From positions 1 to 64,000 of the forward strand of contig CBDBFU010000033.1 in the NCBI GenBank assembly GCA_965205025.1: a DNA stretch of 64,000 nucleotides, given 5' to 3'. Shown here piece by piece: positions 1,821 through 61,874 of the stretch. The notes below the pieces were generated by a model. That model was not told the DNA's origin, did no database searches, and was given only the letters and a program-made list of their open reading frames with translations. The position numbers were made by a program, and so were the translations under genes. How positions within the stretch are numbered: position 1 is the stretch's first letter; each line of letters begins with the position of its first letter. The stretch comes from Candidatus Poribacteria bacterium (lineage in GTDB: Bacteria > Poribacteria > WGA-4E > WGA-3G).

Positions 1821-3713
1821 CTACCACGGTTGTTGATACGATGCTACATTGACAAAACGCTGCATCCCTACTTCCAACTTAATGTGTGTATTAGGCGGTA
1901 GATTAACTTGAAGATATGTGCCGTTGATCGATATGGTGTCCCCGCTTTTACCATCATTGGCACGTGCAGTCGTGAAATTGTGTTCAGCCATCCCTCCTGC
2001 CTGAATAATTACATCCCGATCAGTTGAATCGCTTAAATTGACTAATTCAATATTTGTTGTATTATCAGTGATATTTGTAACCAACACGGCTACATCCTCA
2101 GGAAGACCTGGACGTTTATTCTCTGGATCAAAATGACGGACGCGTGTTACAAATAAACCTCCGTTGTAATGGGGTAATGGAGCACCACAAGTCAACTGGA
2201 CAAGTCCTTCACAAGTCACTGGATTCCTTCGCTGGAAATATGCATCTCCATAACCAGCCGGATCTTCATCATCATTTTCCATGTAGTTGAGTCGTTGTTG
2301 AACTTGTGATAGATTATGATTGAGGATTGATTCGGGATATTCAGGAAAATCACCTCGCATATATGCCAACCAACCACCATCACGTCCACCTTGGTCTTTA
2401 GTATGATGCCATGTGTTAATGTCAAATTTCGATCCTGTCTTTTTCATAATCTGTATGGCACGATACTGGTCCTCATCTTCCATTGACATAGCCCATAAAT
2501 GAGCAACATCAGATGGGTGCATTGGCATAAATTCAAACCAACCATCTTTTTGTAAGACGGTACCGTCCTCTTTTGTAATCGGATACTGCATCCACGGACC
2601 AAGAGTATAGTTTGCAATTCCAGGATCACCATATTTCTGTGGTACATAGAGTTGATCGTTATGCTCCATACCGTTCTGAATTAGGACATCAATTTGCGAT
2701 CGCGGGAAATCCATATATGTCAAATCATTGTGAAGGAGTGCTGCATTCTGTGCAGCAGTACTCACTGCTTGTCCAACGCTATGCCAGCCGTGTGGCCAAC
2801 TCCAACCATAACGAGAACCATACCACTTGCCTTCCATGTATTCACCGATTTTTCCTGTTAATCCAACGTTATCAGGTACAATTCCGTCATTTTCTTCAGT
2901 GCGTGCAATCCATGCATCAACATATTCCTGAACCCATGCCTTGTATTTCTCCTCACCTGTGAACATATAGGCATTGGTAGCAAGAGTAGTTGCAGCAAGA
3001 TTACCGACTGCATCTCCTTTTCCTTGTCGTTCATAGATAATTCGTCCCATCAGATCCCGTAACTCATCGCTTTCCAACATCACATCACGACTTGTGCACC
3101 CTGGAACATCAATAAATGGTAAATTGTAACCCATAGCAGGATAAAATGATTCTCTTTCGAGGATCCAAAATGCCGGTCCTTTACTACCATTCATTGCACA
3201 CTTGATGATTTTGTGTTCTGGGTCGTAATTCTGGGCATCTGGATCCTCGTTCAGATAGAATCCTGCGAAGCGTTTGGCGCGTTCAATGTTTGTAGTATGT
3301 GTCGGATCAGCCATACACAACATGTAAAACAGATAGTTCCCTTCACTTTGGTGAAACCAGTCGTATCCCGGTTGATACTCCTTATAGACCATTGGATAGT
3401 CGTGTCCCGATCCGAATCGTGCCATGTCTTTTGTGATAACATCAAATTCGGTTTGTGCATCTACCAAGAACTGTGCATCTCCACCAAGCATATAAAAAAG
3501 TGGCCAATTATGGAAACTCTCATAAGCATCGTCTAATCCATCAAAGCTTTGAAAATCTGGATGTGTTGGCCAATATAACGTTCCGTCTGGACGTGTGTAC
3601 TTTTTTAGAACTTTAGGTGCTGCAGTATTAATTTCGTCAATCAATTTACGTTCAAGAACCGCCCATTCTGGGGCATTCTGGAAGTGATTCTGTGCTTTAA
3701 TTGTAGGAATCAT
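1821..3713 (-). CDS. Large conserved hypothetical protein, possibly an (alpha/alpha)-barrel lyase/hydrolase
   Basis: ~630-aa ORF, ATG at 3713 with GGGAGA RBS; aromatic/acidic motifs DDAYESFHNWP, YDWFHQSEG. Confidence 0.65.
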   Translation of the reverse strand: MIPTIKAQNHFQNAPEWAVLERKLIDEINTAAPKVLKKYTRPDGTLYWPTHPDFQSFDGLDDAYESFHNWPLFYMLGGDAQFLVDAQTEFDVITKDMARFGSGHDYPMVYKEYQPGYDWFHQSEGNYLFYMLCMADPTHTTNIERAKRFAGFYLNEDPDAQNYDPEHKIIKCAMNGSKGPAFWILERESFYPAMGYNLPFIDVPGCTSRDVMLESDELRDLMGRIIYERQGKGDAVGNLAATTLATNAYMFTGEEKYKAWVQEYVDAWIARTEENDGIVPDNVGLTGKIGEYMEGKWYGSRYGWSWPHGWHSVGQAVSTAAQNAALLHNDLTYMDFPRSQIDVLIQNGMEHNDQLYVPQKYGDPGIANYTLGPWMQYPITKEDGTVLQKDGWFEFMPMHPSDVAHLWAMSMEDEDQYRAIQIMKKTGSKFDINTWHHTKDQGGRDGGWLAYMRGDFPEYPESILNHNLSQVQQRLNYMENDDEDPAGYGDAYFQRRNPVTCEGLVQLTCGAPLPHYNGGLFVTRVRHFDPENKRPGLPEDVAVLVTNITDNTTNIELVNLSDSTDRDVIIQAGGMAEHNFTTARANDGKSGDTISINGTYLQVNLPPNTHIKLEVGMQRFVNVASYQQPW

Positions 3714-46512: not shown

Positions 46513-49500
46513 TTATCTCACTACTTGAATAGTTCCTGTACCTGCCACAGCGGATTTGCTGGGATCATACATAGCCTCAGCGGAAATAGGTGGTAATGTA
46601 AAACTACCTTCGGTTACTGCCCTTAGCGTATAATAGAATTTCTGTTCGTTATCTTTAGGAAATGATCCAAAGAGAATCAGCCTATCATCACGGATATCAA
46701 TGTTATTTGGTCTGAAGGATTGTTGATGGAGAATTGACCTACTATCTCTTGTTTTGAGTCGAGGGTTTTCTATTTCAAATCCTGATGGTAACATATCAAC
46801 AACCACAACATTATGAAGATCCTTAGACAATGATTTTACACTGATTTCTGTGATTAGCAGTTCTCCCTGTTGAAATACTTTCTTAACACGAGATTGATCC
46901 TGTGTTAAATATCGTCTATTGATAACTATTTCATTACCATATTCCTCAATATATGAATCACGACCGATTCCAAAGGCTTCCCAATAGTAATAACATGTAC
47001 CATTCCCTTGTATATTGATCTTAAAATGTGAACCGTCCCAATCTGAATTTATAAGTTGCTTACCCATAGAATCAAAACGAACGACATGATCTGTATCTCG
47101 AACAATTTCACCAGAGAATTTCTGCTGAGGTAGTTTATTTAAATATTTACCAAGTGCAAGAAATGCATAGGCATTCTCTTGTGTTGTTCCCCATCTTTGT
47201 CTATTTGAAGCTGAATCTGTAAGACTTTCGACCAAATGTGGAATCAACGGATGGTCATCCTTTATCTCCATTAACATATCTAAAATAATTGCATACGATC
47301 TAACACTTGAATCGAAATTCCAACCCGTATCTCGATATTCTGTTTTCTCAATATCGACTTTATCAGGTAAGAGTGATAGTGCAATCTGTTTATTTCCACT
47401 ATGTGCAAAAGCCCCAGCCAGTTGAAAAATACTATAATCATTAAGATCCTTTATACGGTTATTTCTGAGATGGAACATAACCTGTTTTTCTGCTTGTCCT
47501 GCTTTACTTAATACATAACAGGCATAAACTACTTGTGGTAATCTATATTTATCAGGTTGTCTGTTCTCGTTGTAATTTGGAATTAATTCTTGTCTGACTT
47601 GTCTCCGTAACCCTTCAATCATTCTGTTATATGTGTAATCTGAAACTTGGTAACCTGCTATTCTTGCTTCAACGAGATAATGTGCAGCATAGATACTGCT
47701 CCAGGTGTGTGTATAAGATCCGCGTTGCCAATATGAGAACATCAGATTATTTCCTAACATTTTTTCAAGTTTTTCAATTCCTACCTCAATATATTCTTTG
47801 ATTTTACCCTCTTCTGCTAATGTTGGTTCAACTATACGCGCTAAATCAGTGAGGTATAGTAATGGAAATACACGGCTTGTTGTTTGTTCAAGACACCCGT
47901 AAGGATATTGGATAAGGTATCGAAGTCCGTTTGCAAAACGTAATGAAGGGAGTGGAGATAGCGTAACCAAAAACTCAGAAGTATCCGATCGTAAGTTCGA
48001 TGGTAGTATGAATTCTGCAGGTTCATTCACGCTAACAATTCCTTGTCCAGTCTTAGTAATGTATGGTGCAGGTGACCTGATTGGAATACTGATAGGTGCT
48101 GACTTAATCTCATCTCCACCTCCAGTAATAGATAGATTAAAATCCGAAATACCAACTGCATCATGAGCGATTACATCAAAATACACCTGTCCTTCGGTAT
48201 CTGATTCAACACTCAACTGTTTTTCAAGTGAATCATCATCAATAACCATAGTCTGATGTAGATTACTATTACCAGACAATAGTTTTACTGGACCAGAGAC
48301 TTGTAATTTTACCTTGAAATCAGCTGAATTGGTATTGCCATTATACACGGTAACAGGAACGCGTATACGATCACCACTTGAAAGAAAACGAGGGAATGTT
48401 GGTGTCATGACTACTGGATCGCGCACTTGAATCATACTGGTTGCCGAACCGAAGTCTTTTCCTGCGAATGCAACTGCCATCAGACGAAGTGTTCCATTGA
48501 ATTGTGGAATATCTATACGGATATTCCCATTGCCATCTTTATCTGTTCTTATCAATCCAGACCAGAGTGATATGGGTTTGACTCGTAGAACAGAGTCAGT
48601 GTTAACTCTTCTACCCCTACTCAACCTACGCTGTTGAACAGAACTTCTTACACTTTTTGCTGCAGGCATTGGAGATCCAATTGTATCCAATGCTACTGCT
48701 TGAGCATAAGCAATTTCGTCTTTGAAATAGGCAACTGAATCTAAACCTAATATATCCGCAAGAGATTGAATAGGTGTAATAGGAAATTGTTTATCCCGTG
48801 TAATTGCTGTATAAAATTCAAAGGATAGTGTATCTAATCTTCTCTTCTGATAGAAATATGAGTGTGGATCTGGTGTATTCATACCAGTTAGTTGAATTAT
48901 ACCTTCATCAACAGCTGCGACTGTTACCATATATGATTGTTCTTTTTTCTTTCCATTAACTTTAACCTTTATATTGATATCTGAATTCGGTCGAACCTGT
49001 TCAGGAGCATCTATAGCAACATTTAAGTGATTAAGTTCGGCATTAATTTTTAATGGTAATATTCCATAAGCCCGTGCAGGAACATCCTTCTTCAATGTTG
49101 TAGTGGATCTAATTAGTATTGCAGAAATATACACATTCGGAGAATATAATTCCTCTACAGGGATTGTCAATGTCTCAGTCGTGTTTTTCAAGGTAATAGT
49201 CTGGTAACTCAACACTTTGTCACGTTCGATTGTTAGTAATACTTTCCCTTGGAATGGTGGTTTTATAGTTAGTTTCGCTTCTTCACCTGGTAGGTATGAG
49301 GGTTTATCAAGGGACATATCAAGTTTATCAGCATTTTCGATAGACCAAGGCACACCACCCCATTCCGAAACATAAAATTGCATTGAAGTTTTTGCTTTAC
49401 TCTTAAGATCCTCAATCTCTACCAAATGAACCCCAAAAGCAACAGGAATAAAATCAAACGTACCTGGTTTTTCAAGCGATGTTAGAGTTCTTGTTTCTAT

Positions 49501-52008
49501 TTTCGTATAAGATGGAGATTCTTGTCCTCGCCTGTTGTGTGAATCAATAGATGATACTGTCATCTTTACCGGATGTCCACTCGTGACCATTCCATCTGTA
49601 TCTAATACGATGTATTCAAAACTAACCTTCTCATTTAATTTAACTGTTCCTTCCACAGGTCGTCTAATACCAATATAGTGTGTATAGGGATGGACAAGAA
49701 CTGAGTCAGAAGTAGAAACGGCACGTCCACCAAGATCTTGTACAGATATATGTATATCACAGTTAAGGGCAGCAGGTGGTTTTAATTCCTTTGGGAGTTT
49801 GAAAGCATAATTTACATTGCCATGTGCATCGGTCACTGTATCATTTAGTTGTATGGTGTTCCTTTCAAATGTGCGTGAATTATCAGCAAACTTATATGAA
49901 TTCCATTTCTCCGGTGGTATAAATTGAATTGGTGAAAGGAAATATAAAGCGTATACTGATCTACCAACAGCAGGAGTGCCATATAGGTTTGCTGCATTTA
50001 TATCAAAATTTACCTCATCCCCTACAGTATAAGTAGCTTTTTCAACATTAAGATCTATTTTCATTCTGTCTGGAATGAATTCTTCTACTTGAAAAGATAC
50101 AGCACCTATCTGATTCTTCCCAATTAACATTTTGGCGTTGTACCATCCAGTTAGAGAAACATCCGCTATAGGAATTTCAATTTCACATTCCCCTTCACTA
50201 CCAGTTTTTACTTCTATTTCTTTTACAATATTCCCCGTTGGATTAACTATGTTAAGCTGTAATGGAAGCTGATTTGGTGGAATGGTTTTTTCTCCTCGAA
50301 CAATACCTACAAGATTCACTGTTTCTCCTGGTCGATATACACCTCGATCAGTATAGAGAAATGCCTCATAGTCATCAACTAAATATGGAATACCATCAAT
50401 GTCGAATCTGTTGGTGGATAATTTCTCTCGTTGCAACTGGAGTAATGAAAAGTCATTATCCTTCTTGACTGTAATAAGAAATTCGGGATTATCTTTAAAT
50501 TCATCTGTATCTATACGAAATTTGGCAAATCCATTCTTATCAGTTTTGTCAGAATACAGTATGTTCATTCTCTTATTATTTAGTATCTGTACATCTGCTT
50601 TCGAAATTGGATTTAATGAATCGAGAGAATTTACCCACACCCACATTTCATTTTTTATTACCTTTGCAACTATCCCAAGATCTGTGATGACTAAAAGTCG
50701 TTCAGCATACCCAACTCTACCTTGATTTGAATAGATAATTATTTTAAAAATCCCGCCATGATTTTCTGTCAGAAATTCCCCTAATGGCAACTCGGTGATG
50801 ACTTCTTCATTATCTATAGAAGCGATTTCGATCTCACCTTTATGAATTAGTTCAGGAAGGCTGGATAGATGTAGTTTTGCAATTCCATATTCAAACTTAT
50901 CTATATTCGTGGTAGCAATTCCAAGATCTAAAGAACCCTTAAGTGGTATGAAGTATGTATCATCAATAAATCGTATTCTTGGATTAAGGTTCGGAACTTT
51001 TAATCTCGCAATATACGTATCTCTTAATATAGTACGGTCTATTGAGGACATACCATGTTTTATATTAAGTGTATATTGTGTGCCAAATTCAAAATCACCT
51101 CGAAGTTCATATTGACTTCCACTACCAACCAATTGAAAAGGTATTGAAGGTGTTAGGCTTACATTTTCTTTTAATATATCATGGTGAATTTGTGAACTGA
51201 ATCTTAGTTGAATGTAAGGATATCCATCTCTTTGTAGAAATTGACTATCATTAACATGTAGGGGTATAATTTCTTCTAAGTTGATTGGTGCATAAATTGT
51301 TTCACTCAGCCCTATTTCAGTCTGATTGGACCTAAATCCCTTGTTAATCTTTACCTGAAGTAATCCACTCTCTAATATCGGTACAATACTATTCAACTCC
51401 AATAAAACCGTATCTGTAATCTGGCTTTGTTCTTGAAACTTATAATCAATAGTGCTTCCCTTGCTTGTAATTATAGACAGATATTCTCCCAATGCATCAA
51501 GATTGATAACATAATTAAATGAGATTATTCCAACTACCTTTATCTGTGTTTCTTCATCAGATTGAATTTTAATCTGTGCACTATCAACCATAAATGGGGT
51601 AGAAGTATATTTGAATTTGCTCTGACCAATTAAATTATGTTTGATCTCAGGTATGAATTTCGGTAGAAATGTAAAAGTATAATCAACAGATGGGGATAGT
51701 GTGTTATCTAAATAGATACCAATTTGGTTCTTTGCTACCCAACGTGCAGTTAATTGCATTGATGGAGTTATCTCTAAAGATTTCGTTGGTATTTCAGTAT
51801 ATAACTTATCATCTTCTATTACATTCTTGGATAGTCTTAACAGGAAATCTGCTATTCCACCATTTTCCTCTTTAGATTGTAGTGATACAACACTAAATTC
51901 TGTATCTCCTTCCTCTTTTGCAAGTACAGTAGTGATTGATAGGATAAGGGTTGATATGATAATGATTCCTATGATTTGAAGTTTCTTATTTTGTGTTATT
52001 TTATTCAT
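46513..52008 (-). CDS. Bacterial alpha-2-macroglobulin
   Basis: ATG 52008 with GGAGA RBS; YTDRGVYRPGE, AAVDEG, thioester YPYGCLEQ, WGTTQENA, DMLPSGFEIEN, AEAMYDP. Confidence 0.95.
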   Translation of the reverse strand: MNKITQNKKLQIIGIIIISTLILSITTVLAKEEGDTEFSVVSLQSKEENGGIADFLLRLSKNVIEDDKLYTEIPTKSLEITPSMQLTARWVAKNQIGIYLDNTLSPSVDYTFTFLPKFIPEIKHNLIGQSKFKYTSTPFMVDSAQIKIQSDEETQIKVVGIISFNYVINLDALGEYLSIITSKGSTIDYKFQEQSQITDTVLLELNSIVPILESGLLQVKINKGFRSNQTEIGLSETIYAPINLEEIIPLHVNDSQFLQRDGYPYIQLRFSSQIHHDILKENVSLTPSIPFQLVGSGSQYELRGDFEFGTQYTLNIKHGMSSIDRTILRDTYIARLKVPNLNPRIRFIDDTYFIPLKGSLDLGIATTNIDKFEYGIAKLHLSSLPELIHKGEIEIASIDNEEVITELPLGEFLTENHGGIFKIIIYSNQGRVGYAERLLVITDLGIVAKVIKNEMWVWVNSLDSLNPISKADVQILNNKRMNILYSDKTDKNGFAKFRIDTDEFKDNPEFLITVKKDNDFSLLQLQREKLSTNRFDIDGIPYLVDDYEAFLYTDRGVYRPGETVNLVGIVRGEKTIPPNQLPLQLNIVNPTGNIVKEIEVKTGSEGECEIEIPIADVSLTGWYNAKMLIGKNQIGAVSFQVEEFIPDRMKIDLNVEKATYTVGDEVNFDINAANLYGTPAVGRSVYALYFLSPIQFIPPEKWNSYKFADNSRTFERNTIQLNDTVTDAHGNVNYAFKLPKELKPPAALNCDIHISVQDLGGRAVSTSDSVLVHPYTHYIGIRRPVEGTVKLNEKVSFEYIVLDTDGMVTSGHPVKMTVSSIDSHNRRGQESPSYTKIETRTLTSLEKPGTFDFIPVAFGVHLVEIEDLKSKAKTSMQFYVSEWGGVPWSIENADKLDMSLDKPSYLPGEEAKLTIKPPFQGKVLLTIERDKVLSYQTITLKNTTETLTIPVEELYSPNVYISAILIRSTTTLKKDVPARAYGILPLKINAELNHLNVAIDAPEQVRPNSDINIKVKVNGKKKEQSYMVTVAAVDEGIIQLTGMNTPDPHSYFYQKRRLDTLSFEFYTAITRDKQFPITPIQSLADILGLDSVAYFKDEIAYAQAVALDTIGSPMPAAKSVRSSVQQRRLSRGRRVNTDSVLRVKPISLWSGLIRTDKDGNGNIRIDIPQFNGTLRLMAVAFAGKDFGSATSMIQVRDPVVMTPTFPRFLSSGDRIRVPVTVYNGNTNSADFKVKLQVSGPVKLLSGNSNLHQTMVIDDDSLEKQLSVESDTEGQVYFDVIAHDAVGISDFNLSITGGGDEIKSAPISIPIRSPAPYITKTGQGIVSVNEPAEFILPSNLRSDTSEFLVTLSPLPSLRFANGLRYLIQYPYGCLEQTTSRVFPLLYLTDLARIVEPTLAEEGKIKEYIEVGIEKLEKMLGNNLMFSYWQRGSYTHTWSSIYAAHYLVEARIAGYQVSDYTYNRMIEGLRRQVRQELIPNYNENRQPDKYRLPQVVYACYVLSKAGQAEKQVMFHLRNNRIKDLNDYSIFQLAGAFAHSGNKQIALSLLPDKVDIEKTEYRDTGWNFDSSVRSYAIILDMLMEIKDDHPLIPHLVESLTDSASNRQRWGTTQENAYAFLALGKYLNKLPQQKFSGEIVRDTDHVVRFDSMGKQLINSDWDGSHFKINIQGNGTCYYYWEAFGIGRDSYIEEYGNEIVINRRYLTQDQSRVKKVFQQGELLITEISVKSLSKDLHNVVVVDMLPSGFEIENPRLKTRDSRSILHQQSFRPNNIDIRDDRLILFGSFPKDNEQKFYYTLRAVTEGSFTLPPISAEAMYDPSKSAVAGTGTIQVVR

Positions 52009-52032
52009 TTGTCTATCTCCAATATATATTAT

Positions 52033-52176
52033 AACGTGAGTTTGATAAGACACACTGTAACCTGATCTTTTGGTTATCACCAGAGTGCACAAACTGGAAA
52101 GTTTGTGCTACAAAGACTATCTTCAGGACAAAATTCTGTTTACCGAACTGACATTTTTTATTATCAAACTGACGTT
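52033..52176. mobile_element. ~144-bp MITE carrying REP hairpin A, copy 2
   Basis: Near-identical to 29279..29422; 5-bp flanking duplication ATTAT; lies in the leader of the alpha-2-macroglobulin gene. Confidence 0.9.
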
Positions 52177-52223
52177 ATTATATGAGTATGGTGGTTTAAC
52201 TATTAGAATATTATATGGAAATT

Positions 52224-52240
52224 TGCAAATAAAATGCCAA
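52224..52240 (-). promoter_or_regulatory. Sigma-54 promoter candidate for alpha-2-macroglobulin
   Basis: Minus strand TTGGCATTTTATTTGCA (GG-N10-GC). Confidence 0.55.
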
Positions 52241-52461
52241 TTCATTTGAATTCATACCGTTGATTTATGGCATTCATACCGTTGATTCCTTGATTTGGTA
52301 GGGACGGAATGTTTATGGCAAAAGTGTATATCCCTATGGTCACTTCCTCAGAAATGGTAGTATGTCTTGCACGTTTCTGTGCATATTGTTAATCAATGCC
52401 CTATTATGTGCATCTGAATCGACCTAACATCCCATTATCATAGGTTTTTTAAGGTTTGAAA

Positions 52462-52478
52462 TTGGCATATTAATTGCT
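52462..52478 (+). promoter_or_regulatory. Sigma-54 promoter candidate for the 52537 gene
   Basis: TTGGCATATTAATTGCT (GG-N10-GC), ~60 nt upstream of ATG. Confidence 0.55.
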
Positions 52479-52536
52479 AAATATAGAATAATCAATTCGC
52501 CATAAAGTAAATCTTTTCAAAATCCATACCAATACA

Positions 52537-53412
52537 ATGTCACACAAAATCAATCTACCAACAATATCCATTGGTTCATACCGTGTCACACGCCTAATTA
52601 TTGGTGGCAATCCGTATAGCGGAATTTCTCATAGTACTCCTGCTGCCTCCAAAGCAATGGAGGATTATTATACCACGCAACAGATAATTGAGGATCTAAA
52701 ACAAGCCGAAGTTAATGGCATTAATACAGTTCTTGCCAGAGCGGATAGGCACATTATGCGGACACTGAATGAATACTGGAATAGTGGTGGTACAATACAG
52801 TGGATAGCACAGACCCCAAAAGCAAAAGAATATAATGACCTTAGCACATATTTAGACTTAATCGCTCAATATAAACCGATTGCTATTTATCACCATGGTG
52901 GAACAACTGACGAACTCTATATTGAAGGTAAACTTGATTCACTACATGAGAGTATGAAACAGATTCGTGACCTTGGTTGTGCTGTAGGTATTGGAACCCA
53001 TGATCCCCTGATACTGAAATACTGTTATTCAGAAGGTTTTGATGTTGACTTTTACGTCTGTGCCCTATATAATCATACACGTCACCGAGAGATGTATCTT
53101 GAAGATGACAGAGAAATTGCTGTAGCAACGATTCAAGCAATTCCATTACCCATCATTGCAATAAAAGTATTGGCAGCTGGTAGAAATGAACCTATTACTG
53201 CTTTCCAATACGCATTATCTAATATCAAACCGATAGATGCGATGGCAGTAGGAATGTATACAAAATTTCAACCGGATCAAATACATCAAAACGCACTGAC
53301 TATTGCTAAACTTACCGAGGAATCTGAGAATGGAGCGGATTGTAGAACCAGAAGTAATGGATACCCCCGAGGCTGCAGCCGCTTACGACGCGATGGAGCA
53401 TGGGGAGGTTGA
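52537..53412 (+). CDS. Aldo/keto reductase-like TIM-barrel hypothetical protein (3' end probably over-extended)
   Basis: VTRLIIGGNPYSGISH, IAIKVLAAGR, AVGMY; 83-nt overlap with the next gene suggests an indel. Confidence 0.65.
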   Translation: MSHKINLPTISIGSYRVTRLIIGGNPYSGISHSTPAASKAMEDYYTTQQIIEDLKQAEVNGINTVLARADRHIMRTLNEYWNSGGTIQWIAQTPKAKEYNDLSTYLDLIAQYKPIAIYHHGGTTDELYIEGKLDSLHESMKQIRDLGCAVGIGTHDPLILKYCYSEGFDVDFYVCALYNHTRHREMYLEDDREIAVATIQAIPLPIIAIKVLAAGRNEPITAFQYALSNIKPIDAMAVGMYTKFQPDQIHQNALTIAKLTEESENGADCRTRSNGYPRGCSRLRRDGAWGG

Positions 53413-53992
53413 TCAAGCATTTGTTGATCGTGTCATTGCCCTCGGTGCATCTACTGGTCATTTTCTTGATGTCGGTACCGGTCCAGCACAAATTCCTATC
53501 CTACTTGCCCAAACCTGTCCAAACATTCAAATAACAGCCATAGACTTATCTGAAGAGATGTTGAAAATCGCCGAACAGCATGTTATTGATGCTTGTTTGC
53601 GTGATCGGATTACCCTTCAACTTGTTGACGCTAAAGAATTGCCGTTCCCTGATAAATCATTTGATGGGGTGATCTCAAATAGTATCGTTCACCATATACA
53701 CGATGCATTGAAAGCTTTAATTGATATGGGTAGAGTTGTCAAACCGACAGGTTTGGTGTTAATACGAGATCTAATTCGTCCTGAAACTAATGCAGATGCA
53801 CAAGGATTTGTTGATAAATATGCTGCAGATGATACACCTTACCAACAGAAACTATATTACGATTCCTTCCTTGCTTCCTTTACAATTGCTGAAGTTAATG
53901 AGATGCTGATTCAGATGGATATACCCGGTGCTGCTGTTGTGCAAAGCACTGATCGACATTGGTCTATAGAAAGAGAATTTATCAGAGAATAG
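53330..53992 (+). CDS. Class I SAM-dependent methyltransferase
   Basis: ATG 53330 after GAGGA; LDVGTGPAQIP, AIDLSEEML, SFDGVISNSIVHH. Confidence 0.9.
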   Translation: MERIVEPEVMDTPEAAAAYDAMEHGEVDQAFVDRVIALGASTGHFLDVGTGPAQIPILLAQTCPNIQITAIDLSEEMLKIAEQHVIDACLRDRITLQLVDAKELPFPDKSFDGVISNSIVHHIHDALKALIDMGRVVKPTGLVLIRDLIRPETNADAQGFVDKYAADDTPYQQKLYYDSFLASFTIAEVNEMLIQMDIPGAAVVQSTDRHWSIEREFIRE

Positions 53993-54026
53993 AGATATGT
54001 AAATAAATTAAACCCAGAGGTGTTTC

Positions 54027-55148
54027 ATGAAGCGTCTATATGTAATAATGTTGATTAGCCTTATTAGTCTATGCTCGGTTGTCACAGCACAAGCACCGCA
54101 AACGATAGCCGAGCAGCTGCTTGCTGCGACTGTCTATTTAGAAATGCGAGATAAGCAAGGTCGTCAGTCACATGGGAGTGGTTTTTTCATAGACGATGGT
54201 CTGGTGGCGACCAACTACCACGTCATTCAAAAAGCCAAAACTGCATCTGCACAGTTAGTGAACCAATCCGAAAGTTTTGAAGTACAGGGTACCGTGGCAG
54301 TAGATCCAATGCGGGATTTAGCAATACTGAAAGTGGATAATCTTAGTGTACGTCCACTTGTGCTTGGTAATAGTGAAGCGGTACGAATCGGGGACCCTAT
54401 CTACACAGTCGGTAATCCGCGCGGGATACAAGGTACATTCAGTGAAGGACGTATCAGCAACATACTACCCGCAGGTACACCCCAGAATCCTGACAAAATG
54501 ATACAGTTTACTGCCGCCATTTCTCGCGGTAGCAGTGGTGGTGCTGTCGTCAATGAAAATGTGGAAGTAATCGCTATTGTCTCCGAAACACGCGGAGATG
54601 GACAAAACCTAAACTTCGCTGTCCCTGTTAACGCACTGCAAAGGTTGTTAAATAACGCAGGTGATGTAACCCCGTTGTCCGTAGACACACAAGACAGACA
54701 ACCACATGCACATGTAAAACCAAAGAAAGTGGACATCATATATTTTGTCGTGTTGAGTGTTGTAGCGTTCCTGGCACTACACTTCTTACCGAGTGTCAAA
54801 GTCGAAAAAATAACAATCACTATCGGTGTCGCTGGGGTGATAGGTTTGCTGATGATGATAGCAAAAAGCATCATACCAACACTCCTGTCTGTTCCCATGT
54901 ATGACCTATTTAATGCACCAATGTCTGAACAGGGACTCTGGCATATGATAGATTGTCTGGATTGTATACCTATTTTGGTAGGAAAAATAACCGCGCTGCT
55001 TTGCTACTTCGGTGCCATGTGCCTTATCATCGGGAGCACAAATAAAATACAAGGGATCAATATCGAAGGCTTCTTCAATACTTGTTGGGTTGCGTTGCTT
55101 GTTGTAATAGGTCAGAAAATGATTTATTGGATATTGCCCTGGATATAA
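54027..55148 (+). CDS. Secreted trypsin-like serine protease fused to a C-terminal YvlD/phage-holin-4-like membrane domain
   Basis: Signal peptide; triad TNYHV, RDLAIL, ISRGSSGG; C-terminal TMs with FLPSVKVE and GINIEGF. Confidence 0.8.
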   Translation: MKRLYVIMLISLISLCSVVTAQAPQTIAEQLLAATVYLEMRDKQGRQSHGSGFFIDDGLVATNYHVIQKAKTASAQLVNQSESFEVQGTVAVDPMRDLAILKVDNLSVRPLVLGNSEAVRIGDPIYTVGNPRGIQGTFSEGRISNILPAGTPQNPDKMIQFTAAISRGSSGGAVVNENVEVIAIVSETRGDGQNLNFAVPVNALQRLLNNAGDVTPLSVDTQDRQPHAHVKPKKVDIIYFVVLSVVAFLALHFLPSVKVEKITITIGVAGVIGLLMMIAKSIIPTLLSVPMYDLFNAPMSEQGLWHMIDCLDCIPILVGKITALLCYFGAMCLIIGSTNKIQGINIEGFFNTCWVALLVVIGQKMIYWILPWI

Positions 55149-55213
55149 GAAAAGCAAGACAGATGGTGACAGTCAATGAACGTCATAAAGATAAGTCTGC
55201 TGAGTGAAAAATA

Positions 55214-55486
55214 TTATCCGCGATACCAAGCCCCGATAGACCTCACAATCATTTTGACAATGCCAGAGAAGAAACCGAGTAGAAACATCCCGACTAAAAC
55301 GAACGCCCCCAAACCAAGCCACCCCGATACAAACACAAAAGTACAAACAACCGCAAATATAGTCGTATTCAACACACCCAAACCGTAATGTTGACTGTAA
55401 TATATTGCTACAAAAAATGAAAATACGGGTATGATACCAAGTAAATAAAAATACCAACGCGGCAGAAAAGGAAACTTTTGTTTCAA
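55214..55486 (-). CDS. Small hypothetical membrane protein
   Basis: 90-aa hydrophobic ORF, TTG start, convergent on the protease gene. Confidence 0.5.
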   Translation of the reverse strand: MKQKFPFLPRWYFYLLGIIPVFSFFVAIYYSQHYGLGVLNTTIFAVVCTFVFVSGWLGLGAFVLVGMFLLGFFSGIVKMIVRSIGAWYRG

Positions 55487-55625
55487 AATTGATACCTATG
55501 AATTATAGAGAGAATTCTGTAACTCATGACACAAGATACGCCCCAAAAAGGTGCATAAAAGCAATATTTTCGTGGCACGAGATATTAAACCGTCTGAGAT
55601 TTCTTAGAGGGTGTTTAACCTACTA

Positions 55626-55751
55626 ATACCATTTCTGGTAATTAAAGTCCACTAATAAATCTCTTTAATGTAGCACAAACTTCCAGTTTGAGTAGTATTT
55701 CAAGACATAAATATCACCTAATCACGGGAGAATCATTTATAGAAATGGAAT
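55626..55751. mobile_element. MITE (ATACCATTTC ends) carrying REP hairpin A, uninterrupted copy
   Basis: ATACCATTTC...GAAATGGAAT; GTAGCACAAACTTCCAGTTTG; matches the outer parts of 46243..46478. Confidence 0.8.
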
Positions 55752-55916
55752 TATGTTAGATGTATGGATAATGTGTTTGGAAAAAGTGTTAATATTTATC
55801 GTTCTGATATGATTACACTTTCACGGAAACCTTCACGGAGCAATTTTACGAACCCTTATCCTATAAGGGTTTATAATTTTAACTATACCAATTTTCCGTG
55901 AATCACATAAGTTAAT
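55752..55916. repeat. ~165-bp dispersed non-coding element, copy 2
   Basis: Aligns with 3952..4118; contains palindrome AACCCTTAT-CCT-ATAAGGGTT. Confidence 0.85.
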
Positions 55917-56294
55917 ATTTATTTAACTTAAATATGAACGAAATGCATCTTTGGTACTCGTCTGATACCATTCCTATAAATGTTTATCCTATGAACAGTT
56001 GTTATACGAGACTTAAAATACTGCACAATCAGAAACCTGTTATAAGTACAATCACAGAAATCATGATAATGTATTCGTTAAATTTCTAATTGATTCTATG
56101 AATTTGAACTAAGTATGATAATTTATTAACGACAGGTGGGACACTTGCAGCGACAATTTAACTTGTTAAGATACTTGGCGGGGATATTGTAGGTATTACA
56201 TTATTAATAGAATTAACGAAATTTAATGATCAAGAAATGATTAGTGATATACCAATATTGTCTATATTTGAATCTGATAATCTATGATGGTATT

Positions 56295-56567
56295 TCAGTG
56301 TTCCTCTGCGTCCCAAACTTCACCTTCATCATGAAGCGCATCCATAAGATCTTCGTATGCCGCCAGTGCTGACAATTCATTATTGAAAAATTTTATCAAG
56401 ACCTGATTTTGATTGTCGTTACTTTTATCACCTGCCATGATAAAACGTAATGCGTATTTATTATCAGGAACACTATGATGCGTAACAATTATTTCTCTAA
56501 TAAACTTTGAATTGATTGATCTGCGTATAGAACCAAACTTAGATTCTTCAATATCCTTTATGAACAT
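56295..56567 (-). CDS. Hypothetical protein
   Basis: ATG 56567 after AAAGGA; 90 aa. Confidence 0.55.
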   Translation of the reverse strand: MFIKDIEESKFGSIRRSINSKFIREIIVTHHSVPDNKYALRFIMAGDKSNDNQNQVLIKFFNNELSALAAYEDLMDALHDEGEVWDAEEH

Positions 56568-56981
56568 GTTGATTTCCTTTCTAAAAGTCAATACTTGAAA
56601 TATTATATATCATGTTTTATATAAGTGTCAAAGTAAACTCAACGAATATAAATTATATGTCATTTCCCCAGTCTTCTCCTCTTCTGTAGGATGTAATTCC
56701 GATCCGCGATCTTCTCCTCTTCTGTGGAAGAAAACCGTAACGCAAAACGCCACTACAAAAGTTAAGCATGAGAGTAATTGATTTATTTTATTTTGAGAAA
56801 TTAGAGGAGTAATGATACAATTTGTATTGAATGTAAAAAAACAAAGCATGCTAGTAATAGTGAGGGATATGAAAGCGGGGGATACGCTTAATCCCTAATT
56901 ATACTGGGATACGCAAACTTAATCAGGCAAACACTATTTTAAATCACGTGGTGTTTGCTTCAAAACTAATGAGGTAACAGA

Positions 56982-57734
56982 ATGTTCACACCGAAACGCT
57001 TATTTTTCAGTTTAGGGTTTCTGTTTCTTACCGTCATAATAGTCTGGACAACATGGTATTTCACCATTGTACGCCCTAATCTCATAGGGAATCCTATCGT
57101 GCGTTACAACACAGAATCACAAATAACAACGAATGACACGGTAGACGCAGCAGTTATAGAAAAATCTCAGATAGGGAAAAACATTAAAGAACATGACACA
57201 TCGGAAACACATAAAGAGCCAAAAGTGATGAGTCAATCTGTGCGTGAGGGGAACAAAAACACAACCGCTTCCTCTACACAAAAAGAATCGGATAAATACA
57301 CAGATTATCCGCCCAAGTCTAATGACAAAAAATTAACTGCTGAGGAATTGGCGAAGAGAAAAGCCGAGGCAGAAATGATGATAAAGAATTATAAAATTCA
57401 GGTGAAGGAATTGCTTAATTCCACAAATGAACTCAAAAAGCAAAGTGAAAGATATAAAGCGAGTTACAATCGAAACGAAATGCATGCAAAACTCGTGAAG
57501 CGGTTAAACTCTCTTTCTGCTGAAGAGCAGAAAGCATACTTTGAAGATATCAAGAGTGGCAAAGCAATTGATGATGTCCTTGAAAACATGAGGACAGCAT
57601 TTAAAGAAGAAGGAATTCCCGATAGTTTTATAGGGGTTTTCTTTGAATTGCTTAAACCACAATTGGCTCAAGAATTCGATGCGGAGAAGCATTTAGAAGA
57701 GCTTCGTGCAGATGGATTTAAACCGAAGTTTTGA
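56982..57734 (+). CDS. Membrane-anchored helical hypothetical protein, tandem copy 1
   Basis: RBS GAGG; TM then WTTWYF...RYNTESQI, LNSLSAEEQKAYFE, HLEELRADGFKPKF. Confidence 0.8.
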   Translation: MFTPKRLFFSLGFLFLTVIIVWTTWYFTIVRPNLIGNPIVRYNTESQITTNDTVDAAVIEKSQIGKNIKEHDTSETHKEPKVMSQSVREGNKNTTASSTQKESDKYTDYPPKSNDKKLTAEELAKRKAEAEMMIKNYKIQVKELLNSTNELKKQSERYKASYNRNEMHAKLVKRLNSLSAEEQKAYFEDIKSGKAIDDVLENMRTAFKEEGIPDSFIGVFFELLKPQLAQEFDAEKHLEELRADGFKPKF

Positions 57735-57754
57735 GAAAATGGAGAAGTGTATCT

Positions 57755-58506
57755 ATGAAAAACAACTTCTTTGTATATAGTGTTGGTATTCTTGCAATTG
57801 TTGTTGTCCTTGGATGGACAACATGGTATTTCGCCATTGTACACCCTAAACTCATAGCGGAACCGATCATACGGTACAATACCGAATCCCAAATAGCAGC
57901 GGACAATACGCCAGACGCGACATCAGTAAAGACATCTCAAGGGCAGAAAATTTCTCAAGAAAAAAATGAAACTGTTGATAGGCATGTAGAGGGTGGAAGC
58001 ACAGAAAACGCGGCACCGCTTGTGTCAAAGAATTAAATCAACACACACATCATCCAGATAAGCCTAATGATGAAGAATTAAGTGCCGAGGAATTGGCAAA
58101 GAAAAAAGCTGAAATAGAAAGGGAAAGAAAGGTAGCTGAGAGATATAAAGCTCGGGTAAATGAATTAGGAGCTAGGATAAATGAACTCCAGAAGCATTCA
58201 GAAATACGAAATAAAGAAATTGCAAATCATTTAAACTCTCTTTCTGCTAAAGAGCAGCAAGCTTACTTTGAAAATATTCGAAGTGGTAAAGTACTTGAAG
58301 AATTACCGCCTAATTTTTTTAAATTAGCAAAGGCACATCTGCTATCAAAAGAAGATGAATATTCAGAGGAAGCAATAGACAAAGAGGAAGCAATAGACAA
58401 AGTCCTTGAAGGTTTTAAACAAGAGATACAGAAATATGCTTCAGAAGCAGGCGCGAAAAGGCATTTAGAGAAGCTTCGTGCCCATGGATTTGAACCGAAG
58501 TTCTGA
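57755..58506 (+). CDS. Membrane-anchored helical hypothetical protein, tandem copy 2 (apparent frameshift near 58030)
   Basis: WTTWYF...RYNTESQI, LNSLSAKEQQAYFE, HLEKLRAHGFEPKF. Confidence 0.75.
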
Positions 58507-58525
58507 GAAATGGAGAAACCTCTCT

Positions 58526-58819
58526 AAGAAAAACAACTTTTTTCTATATAGCATTGGCATCTTCGCAATTGTTGGTGTCCTCGTTTGCTTTATTGGATAC
58601 GCAACAAATACACTCCCAATGTACACGCCAATTACAGAAAACGATGCTTTCCTTTATCAGTGGATGACGGAGAAAATTGTTGAAAACAGCACCCTCCCAC
58701 CCCGTGATACACATCGCTGGCTTCCTATCGGTAGAGATAACGGTCAACTGTTACCGCTCTATTCCTATGCCATTGCCTATACACATAAAACGTTAGCGTG
58801 GTTCTTTCCTGCACTATAA
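58526..58819 (+). pseudogene. Truncated STT3/PglB-like oligosaccharyltransferase N-terminal fragment
   Basis: TM + ITENDAFLYQWMTEKI...RDTHRWLPIGRD...LYSYAIAY; AAG where the paralogous gene has ATG; cut off by a repeat cluster. Confidence 0.55.
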
Positions 58820-58855
58820 GCGTCAATTTAGAATATATTTCTTTATAGAATATGT

Positions 58856-59377
58856 CTACAAACCTACTATTGCTACGGTGAATGCCCGGTGAATGTCTAA
58901 ATGGCATTCATACCGTTGATTCCTTGATTCCTGATTCGCGGGGTGAAAGGTGTGTAGAAAACAGATTGCCAAAAAATAAGCCCCAGAGGGGTGAAAGGTT
59001 TGTAGAAAACGTACCAACCAAAGTCCTAAGCCCCAGAGGGGCGAAAGGTGTATCCCTAAATTGTCGCCTATGGTGTCTTCAATAGACCTGTCTATGAAAT
59101 GTTTATAGAAGATCATACGTCTCATGAGAACTCCACCTATATGTTGATATAGACATTCCGTCCCTACGGGACTCAATTATGTGGATATATACCTTTGCTA
59201 TAGACATTCCGTCCCTACGGGACTCAATACCTACCGGTCCGCGGAATTAATATTACCGATTTTAAAAATTTATCTTTATATAGCATTCCCCGTGGTTAGG
59301 AAACCGCACCTACCAGGTTCGGGAGAATAGTATTTTGGGTGAAATGATGTTCATATACCAATTATCAAACTCACGTT
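58856..59377. repeat. Mosaic cluster of REP units and MITE fragments
   Basis: 3x GGGG(T/C)GAAAGGT units, 2x TATAGACATTCCGTCCCTACGGGACTCAAT, REP B, two orphan right ends, 29-bp match to 52267..52295. Confidence 0.85.
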
Positions 59378-59501
59378 ATATTAGGATTAAATGGCAGTAC
59401 ATGTTCTATTTTAATTTTTGTGTTAACATAAAACATGCTATAATATACATATATTTAAACAATGTAATCTGGGGATGTATCTAAACTTAGGAGGAATTGA
59501 G

Positions 59502-60245
59502 ATGTTGAGAGTTCTTTTTGTATTGTTAATCTGCACAACTTTTGTATGTATGAATTCATATCTCGCTGTTGCTGCAGATGGTTTAGTAGGTTTTTGGCCA
59601 TTTGATGAAGGAGCCGGAGGAACTGCTACGGATGTTACTGGGAATGGACATGACGGGGAGTTCAAAGGCGCACCAAAATGGGTTGAAGGGAAATTCGGTT
59701 CAGCACTTGAATTTGACGGGAAAGATGACTACGTACTTGTTCCCGATCATGATGCCTTGGATATTGAAAATAATATTACAATGATGGCATGGTTCAGTCC
59801 TAATGATGTGCTTACCAGTCGTCGTTTAATGGTGAAGAATAATTCCATATTTGTTATCTTTGATTTTGGAAATAAGGACAGCATAGACTTTCTTGTGAAA
59901 CCTGACAATTTATTTGCTGAATCCACAACAACAGAATGGAAAGTTGGTGAATGGTATCACTTTGCAGGAACTTTTGATGGTAAGAAATTACGTGTTTATA
60001 TAAATGGAAAACTTGAAGGAGAAGCAGCTAACAGTACTCCTATTGCACCATCTGATTTAGATCTATGGATTGGTGGAGATGACTATGGACGACCAAGCGA
60101 TTTCTTTCCCGGGAAAATTGATGAAGTCCGAATATATGATGAAACATTGAATGAAGCGGATATTCAAAAAATCATGGATACACCACAAGATGTAGAGGCA
60201 CTTGGAAAACTAACTACTACATGGGGAAGCATCAAGAGTAGATAA
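59502..60245 (+). CDS. Secreted LamG (concanavalin A-like) domain protein
   Basis: GLVGFWPFDEG, GKFGSALEFDG, WYHFAGTFDG, GKIDEVRIY, tail VEALGKLTTTWGSIK. Confidence 0.9.
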   Translation: MLRVLFVLLICTTFVCMNSYLAVAADGLVGFWPFDEGAGGTATDVTGNGHDGEFKGAPKWVEGKFGSALEFDGKDDYVLVPDHDALDIENNITMMAWFSPNDVLTSRRLMVKNNSIFVIFDFGNKDSIDFLVKPDNLFAESTTTEWKVGEWYHFAGTFDGKKLRVYINGKLEGEAANSTPIAPSDLDLWIGGDDYGRPSDFFPGKIDEVRIYDETLNEADIQKIMDTPQDVEALGKLTTTWGSIKSR

Positions 60246-60254
60246 GGAATTTAT

Positions 60255-61874
60255 ATGACAAGCCAGCAAAAACGCCCTGTCGTACTCATTATTCGAGATG
60301 GATGGGGCAACAATCCATATCCTGAATATCAGGAATCAAATGCTGTTCATTTGGCAAATACACCTGTAGATGACTGGATGCGGAAAAACTATCCGCATAT
60401 TACAATTCACACCTCTGGAGAAGATGTCGGTCTACCTGCAGGTGTAATCGGTAACAGCGAAGTTGGTCATCAAAATATCGGTGCCGGACGCATAGTAAAT
60501 CAGGAATTACTCCGTATAAGTAATATGATTCGTTCAGGTGAATTTGCTCAGAACGAAGTTCTCATAAATGCAATATCTCATGTGAAAAATAACAGAACAA
60601 ATTTGCACCTTATGGGATTGGCAAGTGATGCGGGTGTACATAGTTCACTTGAACATCTATATGGATTGCTTAGGCTTGCAAAAGAACATGGATTGGAAAA
60701 AAAGCAAGTATTGGTACATAATTTTAGTGATGGACGTGATTGCCAACCAGATCTTGGTATTAAGTTTTGTGAAGAGATCGAAGCAAAATTAAAGGAGATA
60801 GGGGTAGGAAAAATAGCATCGGTCATCGGTAGATTTTATGCTATGGACCGAGATGATAGATGGGAACGGGTCGAAATAGCATATCGTCTATTAACTGAAG
60901 GAAGTGATTCTTCTGTAAACAACGCAGCCATGGCATATCGTGATTATTATCACAATCCTGATGATGTAAACCGAAAAGGGGATGAATTCGTTCGACCCAC
61001 TGTCGTGTTAGGGGAGGATGGTAAACCGTTACCCCGAATTTCTGACGGTGATTCTGTTATATTTTACAATTTTCGGGGAGACCGTCCAAGGGAGTTAACA
61101 AAGGCATTTTGTTTAGATACATTCCCGTATGATGGTGAAGGAAAAGATGGTGTTACCCGACAAATGGGTTTTAAACGGAATTGTAAATTGAGCGTTAACT
61201 TTATTACGATGACAGAATATGAACAAGGGATGCCTGTCGAAGCGGCTATTAAGAAGCCACCCAAGATGCAGAACACCCTCGGTTCTTTTGTCAGTGATGC
61301 AGGTTTAACCCAATTTCGTTGTGCTGAAACAGAGAAATTCCCTCACGTAACGTTCTTTTTTAATGACTATCGAGACGAACCGTATAATGGCGAACACCGA
61401 CAGATTATCGCCTCTCCTCGTGATGTGACTACCTATGATCAGAAACCGGAAATGTCTGCTCCTGGAGTTACAGAGGAGATGTTAAAAAGAATAGAATCTG
61501 AAAAGTACGATCTAATAGTCTTAAACTATGCGAATGGGGATATGGTAGGACACACGGGTTCACTCTCTGCAGCTATTAAAGCCGTTGAAGCAGTGGATAC
61601 TGGTGTTGGACAGATTGTCAAAGCAGTATTAGACAAAGGTGGTTCTCTCGTTGTTACTGCGGATCATGGGAATTGTGAGCAGATGATTGATCCAGAGACT
61701 GGAGGAATACATACTGCACACACAACCTTTGATGTTGATCTAATCGTTGTTGATGATGAATATAAGGGACGTGAACTCCGTTCAGGTGGACGACTTGCAG
61801 ATATTGCACCGACAGTGCTTAATCTATTAGGGTTACCTCAACCTATTGAAATGACTGGTGAATCCTTAATTTAA
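60255..61874 (+). CDS. gpmI: 2,3-bisphosphoglycerate-independent phosphoglycerate mutase
   Basis: IIRDGWG, GNSEVGH, GRFYAMDRD, AETEKFPHVTFF, DMVGHTG, ADHGNCE. Confidence 0.97.
   Translation: MTSQQKRPVVLIIRDGWGNNPYPEYQESNAVHLANTPVDDWMRKNYPHITIHTSGEDVGLPAGVIGNSEVGHQNIGAGRIVNQELLRISNMIRSGEFAQNEVLINAISHVKNNRTNLHLMGLASDAGVHSSLEHLYGLLRLAKEHGLEKKQVLVHNFSDGRDCQPDLGIKFCEEIEAKLKEIGVGKIASVIGRFYAMDRDDRWERVEIAYRLLTEGSDSSVNNAAMAYRDYYHNPDDVNRKGDEFVRPTVVLGEDGKPLPRISDGDSVIFYNFRGDRPRELTKAFCLDTFPYDGEGKDGVTRQMGFKRNCKLSVNFITMTEYEQGMPVEAAIKKPPKMQNTLGSFVSDAGLTQFRCAETEKFPHVTFFFNDYRDEPYNGEHRQIIASPRDVTTYDQKPEMSAPGVTEEMLKRIESEKYDLIVLNYANGDMVGHTGSLSAAIKAVEAVDTGVGQIVKAVLDKGGSLVVTADHGNCEQMIDPETGGIHTAHTTFDVDLIVVDDEYKGRELRSGGRLADIAPTVLNLLGLPQPIEMTGESLI

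Follow-up and report, generated by a model that had tools for sequence, protein, structure and literature searches.

A single open reading frame at positions 54027..55148, on the forward strand of the 64,000-nt stretch of Candidatus Poribacteria DNA that was analysed (the window), joins a trypsin-like protease to a YvlD-like membrane domain. The gene has an ATG start located 35 nt past the stop codon of an upstream SAM-methyltransferase gene, and encodes 373 aa plus stop, made up of a signal segment, the protease, a linker and a YvlD-like domain with four transmembrane (TM) helices, as defined with an alignment of 26 family sequences. A scan for promoters and terminators gave results at chance level, and there were no Rfam matches within 52000-60500.

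The first 23 residues (54027..54095, delimited by eye) comprise MKR, a hydrophobic core and TAQA. As an earlier note on this DNA had proposed, this segment looks like a Sec signal peptide, and it is shared with soluble paralogues; an 'AQ(S/T/A)P'-like end recurs in most family members in the alignment. Inspection by eye argues against a lipoprotein signal, as Leu precedes the Cys and the Cys is not conserved.

Residues ~27-210 (54105..54656) form a PDZ-less protease domain of the trypsin fold (S1C/HtrA-like), defined from Pfam, NCBIfam and PDB matches. Pfam Trypsin_2 (PF13365) matches residues 50-184 (E 1.3e-28; score 101 bits, cut-off 27.6), and no PDZ family was matched by any part of the protein even at E<=10, which bears out the absence of a PDZ domain reported previously. 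H65 (CAC, 54219..54221), D97 (GAT, 54315..54317) and S170 (AGT, 54534..54536, within G-S-S-G-G) align with the catalytic His, Asp and Ser of E. coli DegP, and each codon was read in the DNA. Conservation in the family is 25/26 for the His and 26/26 for the Asp and Ser, with the only missing His in a truncated sequence. The complete triad that had been recognised by eye is thus in register with DegP, and the protease is predicted to be catalytically competent.

The best PDB matches of the protease are DegP and HtrA2 (E ~3e-20). NCBIfam models for HtrA, DegP, DegS and MarP cover only the protease part and score far under their cut-offs, with the top model, TIGR02037, at 111.4 bits (cut-off 416.2) and the MarP model at 61.8 bits (E 5.7e-17, cut-off 250). 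Matches of the fusion protein in a protein atlas are to generic trypsin clusters only. The window's own genome, G000 (5.66 Mb), yields 26 trypsin-like matches, and the nearest paralogues, at 45% identity, are proteins with a signal, a trypsin domain and tetratricopeptide (TPR) repeats. The protease module was probably derived from this family, which appears to have expanded in G000.

Several of the trypsin-like matches in G000 are clustered on contig C15. Examples from the genome as a whole are C15:135254-136909, C15:138451-139854, C12:164239-165666 and C14:209281-211764. Those that were read are mostly composed of a signal, a trypsin domain and TPR repeats, and one carries a long repeat region, WD40-looking by eye, N-terminal to the protease.

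The short linker described in the earlier note is also present. About 25 aa separate the protease from the first helix, corresponding to residues 211-234 (54657..54728), which fall in gapped, variable alignment columns and end in K-P-K-K.

The membrane domain and its inserted loop

Residues 235-373 (54729..55145) contain four long helices and two short strands, and were assigned by eye in the earlier note to the YvlD/Phage_holin_4_2 family (DUF360, PF04020). Direct searches touch this family only marginally. The PF04020 profile matches with E 0.001 and 20.1 bits, under the cut-off of 28.8 and without reaching the second half of the profile, and BLASTP against the one genuine YvlD of G000 (on contig C14; 91.4 bits to PF04020) gives E 0.001 over 55 residues. 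As neither result was sufficient, the family was collected for a profile comparison.

An hhalign query built from 21 fusion C-termini was compared with a template of 45 standalone YvlD sequences, picked from the best 120 of 299 matches. The two align with a probability of 98.65 and E 4.6e-16. The 112 aligned columns extend over the two halves of YvlD and are interrupted once, by a template gap of ~28 residues. Controls gave E 0.036 for a reversed template and E 0.22-0.64 for all ten column shuffles. PF04020 is matched at E<=1 by 19 of the 21 family members (best 1.9e-6), and conversely an HMM of the fusion domain matches 124/124 standalone YvlD, the top scores (60-66 bits) going to YvlD proteins of 115-119 aa that include the type found in this genus. 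The loop motifs L-P-x-V-x-V and G-F-x-V-x-G-F are common to the fusion domain and YvlD, and G-F-F-x-T and P255 are invariant in the fusion family despite identities of only 24-46% in the membrane domain.

The domain was modelled with AlphaFold2 (AF2) from an alignment of 19 fusion and 48 standalone rows, giving a pLDDT of 87.4 and a pTM of 0.76. The order of elements is helix, strand (V-K-V), helix, two short helices, helix, strand (I-N-I), helix. Since hhalign, the family HMM and AF2 agree, the description of the domain as two helix-strand-helix repeats is correct. On these comparisons, the C-terminal domain is a diverged member of the YvlD/DUF360 (PF04020) family and not a generic anchor, and it would be nearest to the genus's own yvlD. 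A fold search with the C-terminal model found no matches at E<=0.001 in PDB or in BFVD, and comparison of the domain profile with PDB sequences gave nothing under E 0.35; these searches thus turned up no solved YvlD to serve as a structural reference. The full-length AF2 model, from a 6-sequence alignment, has a pLDDT of 33, too low to be of use.

Relative to YvlD, the fusion domain has ~28 extra residues between helices 2 and 3. The segment lacking a counterpart in standalone YvlD, defined by the hhalign gap and AF2, spans approximately residues 288-323 (54888..54995), and includes the H-x3-C-x2-C motif that the earlier note had placed in an inserted loop. The motif, confirmed from codons, the family alignment and AF2, is at 54942..54965 (H306, CAT 54942; C310, TGT 54954; C313, TGT 54963). 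Its residues are conserved in 26/26, 25/26 and 26/26 family sequences, respectively, and the other two cysteines of the window's copy are not conserved. In the AF2 model, the His is at the end of a short helix, and the CxxC covers the first turn of TM3. A CxxC in such a position, at the N-terminal end of a helix, is a common feature of redox-active pairs. The position in the model and the conservation suggest that the loop may provide a redox or metal site with a role in the stability or control of the protein.

Distribution and the locus downstream of uppS

Fusion-type ORFs of 298-445 aa were found in the other genomes of the genus, 20 among the 36 examined. Contigs from two sequencing runs span the whole gene with no differences, and a separate study yielded a contig that runs across the junction of the protease and membrane domains. 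An assembly chimera, which the earlier note had considered as a risk, is therefore excluded by the independent contigs and by the 20 congeners that carry the fusion.

Among 61 related genomes (G000 included), fusion-type matches are confined to the genus, and other families of the order have only standalone forms of ~117-177 aa. Five close homologues in a set of 5.8 billion proteins are 80-87% identical over the C-terminal query region. A single-sequence search with the C-terminal domain retrieved only 6 clusters at E<=0.001 among 1.84 billion representatives; standalone YvlD was not reached in this search, and profiles are needed to make the link. The closest named relatives of the YvlD of G000, among the matches listed, are from Candidatus Poribacteria.

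A 122-aa ORF at locus L037 (G009:C1:1336986-1339120) resembles helices 3-4 of the fusion domain in its last ~50 residues, and could be the remnant of a fusion.

In eight of ten congener loci examined, the fusion lies among housekeeping genes (uppS and rsgA) at the position used by yvlD in other genomes. A set of 19 uppS loci (L041-L054 and L057-L061) was compared. The arrangement uppS, fusion, a xylose-isomerase-like TIM-barrel gene and rsgA was seen in 8/19, and the equivalent arrangement with yvlD in place of the fusion in 6/19, G000 among them. UppS and RsgA score above NCBIfam cut-offs and the TIM barrel above its Pfam cut-off. The slot downstream of uppS is empty in the remaining 5/19, two of which are also missing the TIM-barrel gene. 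In four of the five genomes with an empty slot, neither yvlD nor the fusion was found by the searches. As the slot is empty in 5/19 loci and four of these genomes have neither form, the function of YvlD is dispensable, and replacement of yvlD by the fusion therefore need not mean that the two are functionally equivalent.

One of the empty slots, in genome G001, has a 384-aa ORF that looks by eye like a transposase located 2.5 kb away (L058, G001:C4, 3429-4583, reverse strand).

A standalone YvlD above the Pfam cut-off is present in 9 of 40 genomes of the genus. Among these nine, the fusion is also present only in G000 and in G018, the closest relative examined (G061 was outside the fusion search), and in both it is located away from the uppS slot. 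A tree of three flanking proteins from 14 genomes, obtained with a quick search and describing the flanks only, not the genome phylogeny, groups G000, G018 and G004, which all have standalone yvlD. A second clade holds the remaining 11 genomes, of which 8 have the fusion and 3, nested among these, have standalone yvlD. The slot states on this tree require at least 3 changes, and for this reason an origin of the fusion in situ is not proven. Most likely, the protease and YvlD were joined at the yvlD slot that follows uppS, or the fusion entered this slot by recombination. The slot appears to have turned over repeatedly, and copies of the fusion would also have landed elsewhere. Within this one genus, the uppS-adjacent slot switches between yvlD, the fusion and nothing, which shows that the two forms exchange at a single locus.

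The window's fusion gene is an additional copy that lies in a variable block, and its genome retains standalone yvlD. Comparison with G018 (contig C30) by blastn revealed that 53972..59403 is replaced there by ~970 bp, and the flanks of this indel match the methyltransferase gene and the Laminin_G_3 and gpmI genes of the window. The fusion is the first gene in this 5.4-kb segment, which is absent at this site in G018, in line with the suggestion in the earlier note that it opens an accessory block. The higher GC content that had been noted is also real but not extreme. GC amounts to 44.2% in the gene and averages 38.5% over the genome, which places the gene at the 95th percentile of windows of the same size, and its GC3 is 0.41 compared with 0.28-0.32 in three neighbouring genes. 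Beyond the fusion gene, the segment contains small ORFs with no family matches, a tandemly repeated unit of ~770 bp and an inverted-repeat element of the dispersed type. Apart from a Laminin_G_3-type gene found in four, the genes surrounding the window's copy are not common to the ten congener fusion loci.

Comparison with known proteins and predicted role

The fusion domain shares with YvlD homology over both two-helix repeats, the loop motifs and, in eight congeners, the yvlD slot itself. It differs in that standalone YvlD proteins are ~105-130 aa with a tight TM2-TM3 turn, whereas the fusion protein has a protease and the insert. In Bacillus subtilis, yvlABCD belongs to the sigma-W regulon (PMC3498285), and a Listeria YvlD homologue is induced together with PspC/toastrack genes (PMC12791056); these reports document the link between YvlD and envelope stress that the earlier note drew on. 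The B. subtilis operon has PspC/toastrack partners (PMC12791056, PMC3498285), whereas none were seen among the genes scanned around the fusion.

With HtrA, DegP, DegQ and DegS (S1C), the fusion shares the protease fold, the triad, the G-x-S-G-G motif and a presumed extracytoplasmic location. It is distinguished from HtrA, DegP and DegS by the lack of a PDZ domain, by scores under the family cut-offs and by an anchor of several helices at the C-terminus, where theirs is N-terminal. The closest working analogue is mycobacterial MarP (Rv3671c), in which a module of four TM helices is joined to a periplasm-facing, chymotrypsin-like protease (PMC6628586). However, the membrane module is N-terminal in MarP and C-terminal in the fusion, which also falls below the MarP cut-off. 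The membrane part of MarP belongs to a family other than YvlD.

Only one enzyme fusion of the YvlD module recurs among the 30 longer PF04020 proteins listed, namely that with Phosphodiest (PF01663). It accounts for four clusters of these 30 (P0155-P0160, 681-702 aa), and P0156, in which both domains were confirmed, has PF04020 at its N-terminus followed by a type I phosphodiesterase/nucleotide pyrophosphatase domain. Unlike in the protease fusion, PF04020 comes first in these proteins and is of the canonical type (80 bits), and the enzyme is an unrelated one. A trypsin domain was found in none of the 30 longer PF04020 proteins listed, which says little about its absence, as only the 8000 candidates sharing most words were scored. 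The combination of trypsin with PF04020 was not found in the literature in limited searches. In the main text of a PSP survey (PMC11237479), there are no mentions of YvlD, trypsin or protease. A match to DUF360 in a preprint on metal sites was to DUF3604 and was discarded. The earlier note did not recognise the fusion as described, which agrees with the outcome of these limited literature and protein searches, and a fusion of an exported trypsin-like protease to YvlD is apparently undescribed. A membrane-tethered extracytoplasmic S1 protease is a known kind of protein, and it is the YvlD-derived membrane module that is the new and informative part.

The reading we favour, and consider probable on the basis of the sequence features, is that the fusion is an exported, PDZ-less HtrA-like protease tethered at the membrane by a YvlD-derived domain, which cuts envelope proteins and has a redox or metal site in its loop. 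The N-terminal signal would export the protease across the cytoplasmic membrane, and the C-terminal four-helix domain would hold it at the outer face. A signal, whether cleaved or not, followed by four helices would leave the protease in the periplasm together with the insert loop and the C-terminus, and the two short-strand loops facing the cytoplasm. The protease would then be expected to cut envelope proteins at the membrane surface, and the His/CxxC loop, at the membrane-periplasm interface and beside the protease, could serve as the redox or metal site, with a role in stability or control. Lysines precede TM1, and counts of K+R in the loops are ambiguous for topology in the fusion and standalone forms alike. 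The architecture of the proteins with PF04020 and Phosphodiest, in which we take the Phosphodiest domain to be extracytoplasmic, fits an arrangement with the termini outside only if that enzyme domain is extracytoplasmic.

It is rather unlikely that the YvlD-like domain does nothing except tether the protease, with the His and Cys residues having a structural role such as a stabilising disulfide and with no sensing or gating. Many HtrA-like proteases are simply membrane-anchored, neither the charge nor the topology analysis points to any special function, 5/19 genomes can dispense with the yvlD slot, and PF04020 serves as a terminal membrane module in another enzyme family too. However, one helix would suffice for anchoring, whereas both YvlD repeats have been retained, and G-F-F-x-T, P255 and the H/C/C loop have been maintained among sequences of 24-45% identity. 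A larger role for the membrane domain, in which YvlD is a regulated gate or sensor wired via the His/CxxC loop to the periplasmic protease, is itself unlikely. Such a protein might sense redox, metal or membrane state and respond with proteolysis, or the protease might control the opening of YvlD. The fusion may also be the membrane-stress-activated protease proposed in the earlier note. If a gate or sensor were true, it would be the first functional handle on the widespread YvlD family.

Two further explanations are more doubtful. The membrane domain could be a temporary tether or pro-region, with the protease cutting its own linker to be freed into the periplasm or medium. The variable, unstructured linker and the soluble exported paralogues are compatible with such release, which nevertheless seems decidedly improbable, as the strong conservation of the membrane domain, including the loop on the protease side, is unexpected for a disposable tether. 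The earlier note had also raised a protease-gated pore or a self-cleaving, membrane-depolarising anti-phage effector, and this we regard as very improbable. PF04020 is named after a holin family, the window's copy is in a variable and GC3-rich block, and at the domain level the protease resembles protease domains of some defence proteins. However, PADLOC matches are limited to the generic protease domain, and the seven neighbours scanned have none other than a generic methyltransferase domain. PHROG gave no matches for the membrane domain or for the true YvlD of G000, PF04020 is matched in 8 of 14 control genomes and is therefore a common chromosomal family, and eight of the ten congener copies are located among housekeeping genes. 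No lysis or phage genes were seen among the scanned neighbours, and the export signal would put the protease away from phage cues in the cytoplasm.

Membrane proteins of the YvlD/DUF360 family, very common in bacteria, are named 'holin' and are tied to envelope stress by co-expression only. Under the favoured reading of an exported and tethered protease, the fusion offers a prediction for YvlD topology (N- and C-termini outside), a hint of action in the envelope and a conserved loop. The interest is moderate, because the fusion is known from a single uncultivated lineage and tethered periplasmic proteases are familiar.

Other elements near the gene

The inverted-repeat element at 55681-56035 has 71-nt arms separated by 213 nt. 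It has 271 blastn matches in its own genome, 87 of them of at least 150 nt, is very deep in metagenome contigs and has no Rfam match. It looks like a dispersed repeat of the MITE type.

The ~770-bp tandem unit occupies 56982-58819 on the forward strand in about three copies that share 73-83% identity, the second of which is split into ORFs 57731-58036 and 58093-58506. Its products are small proteins with an N-terminal anchor and the C-terminal sequence ...G-F-(K/E)-P-K-F, and they have no Pfam, PADLOC or clear PHROG match.

At the corresponding site in G018 (L055, contig C30), a 138-bp segment at 3099-3236 is a copy, with 77% identity, of the 3′-end of the methyltransferase gene (window 53849-53985). 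It sits immediately before the right-hand boundary of the indel and may be a recombination scar.

A gene at 46513-52092 on the reverse strand, 2 kb upstream of the fusion gene and in the opposite orientation, predicts a bacterial alpha-2-macroglobulin of 1859 aa (A2M bait region, bMG3/5/6/10 and MG2). This protein is a protease trap, and it includes a thioester-type motif, G-C-L-E-Q.
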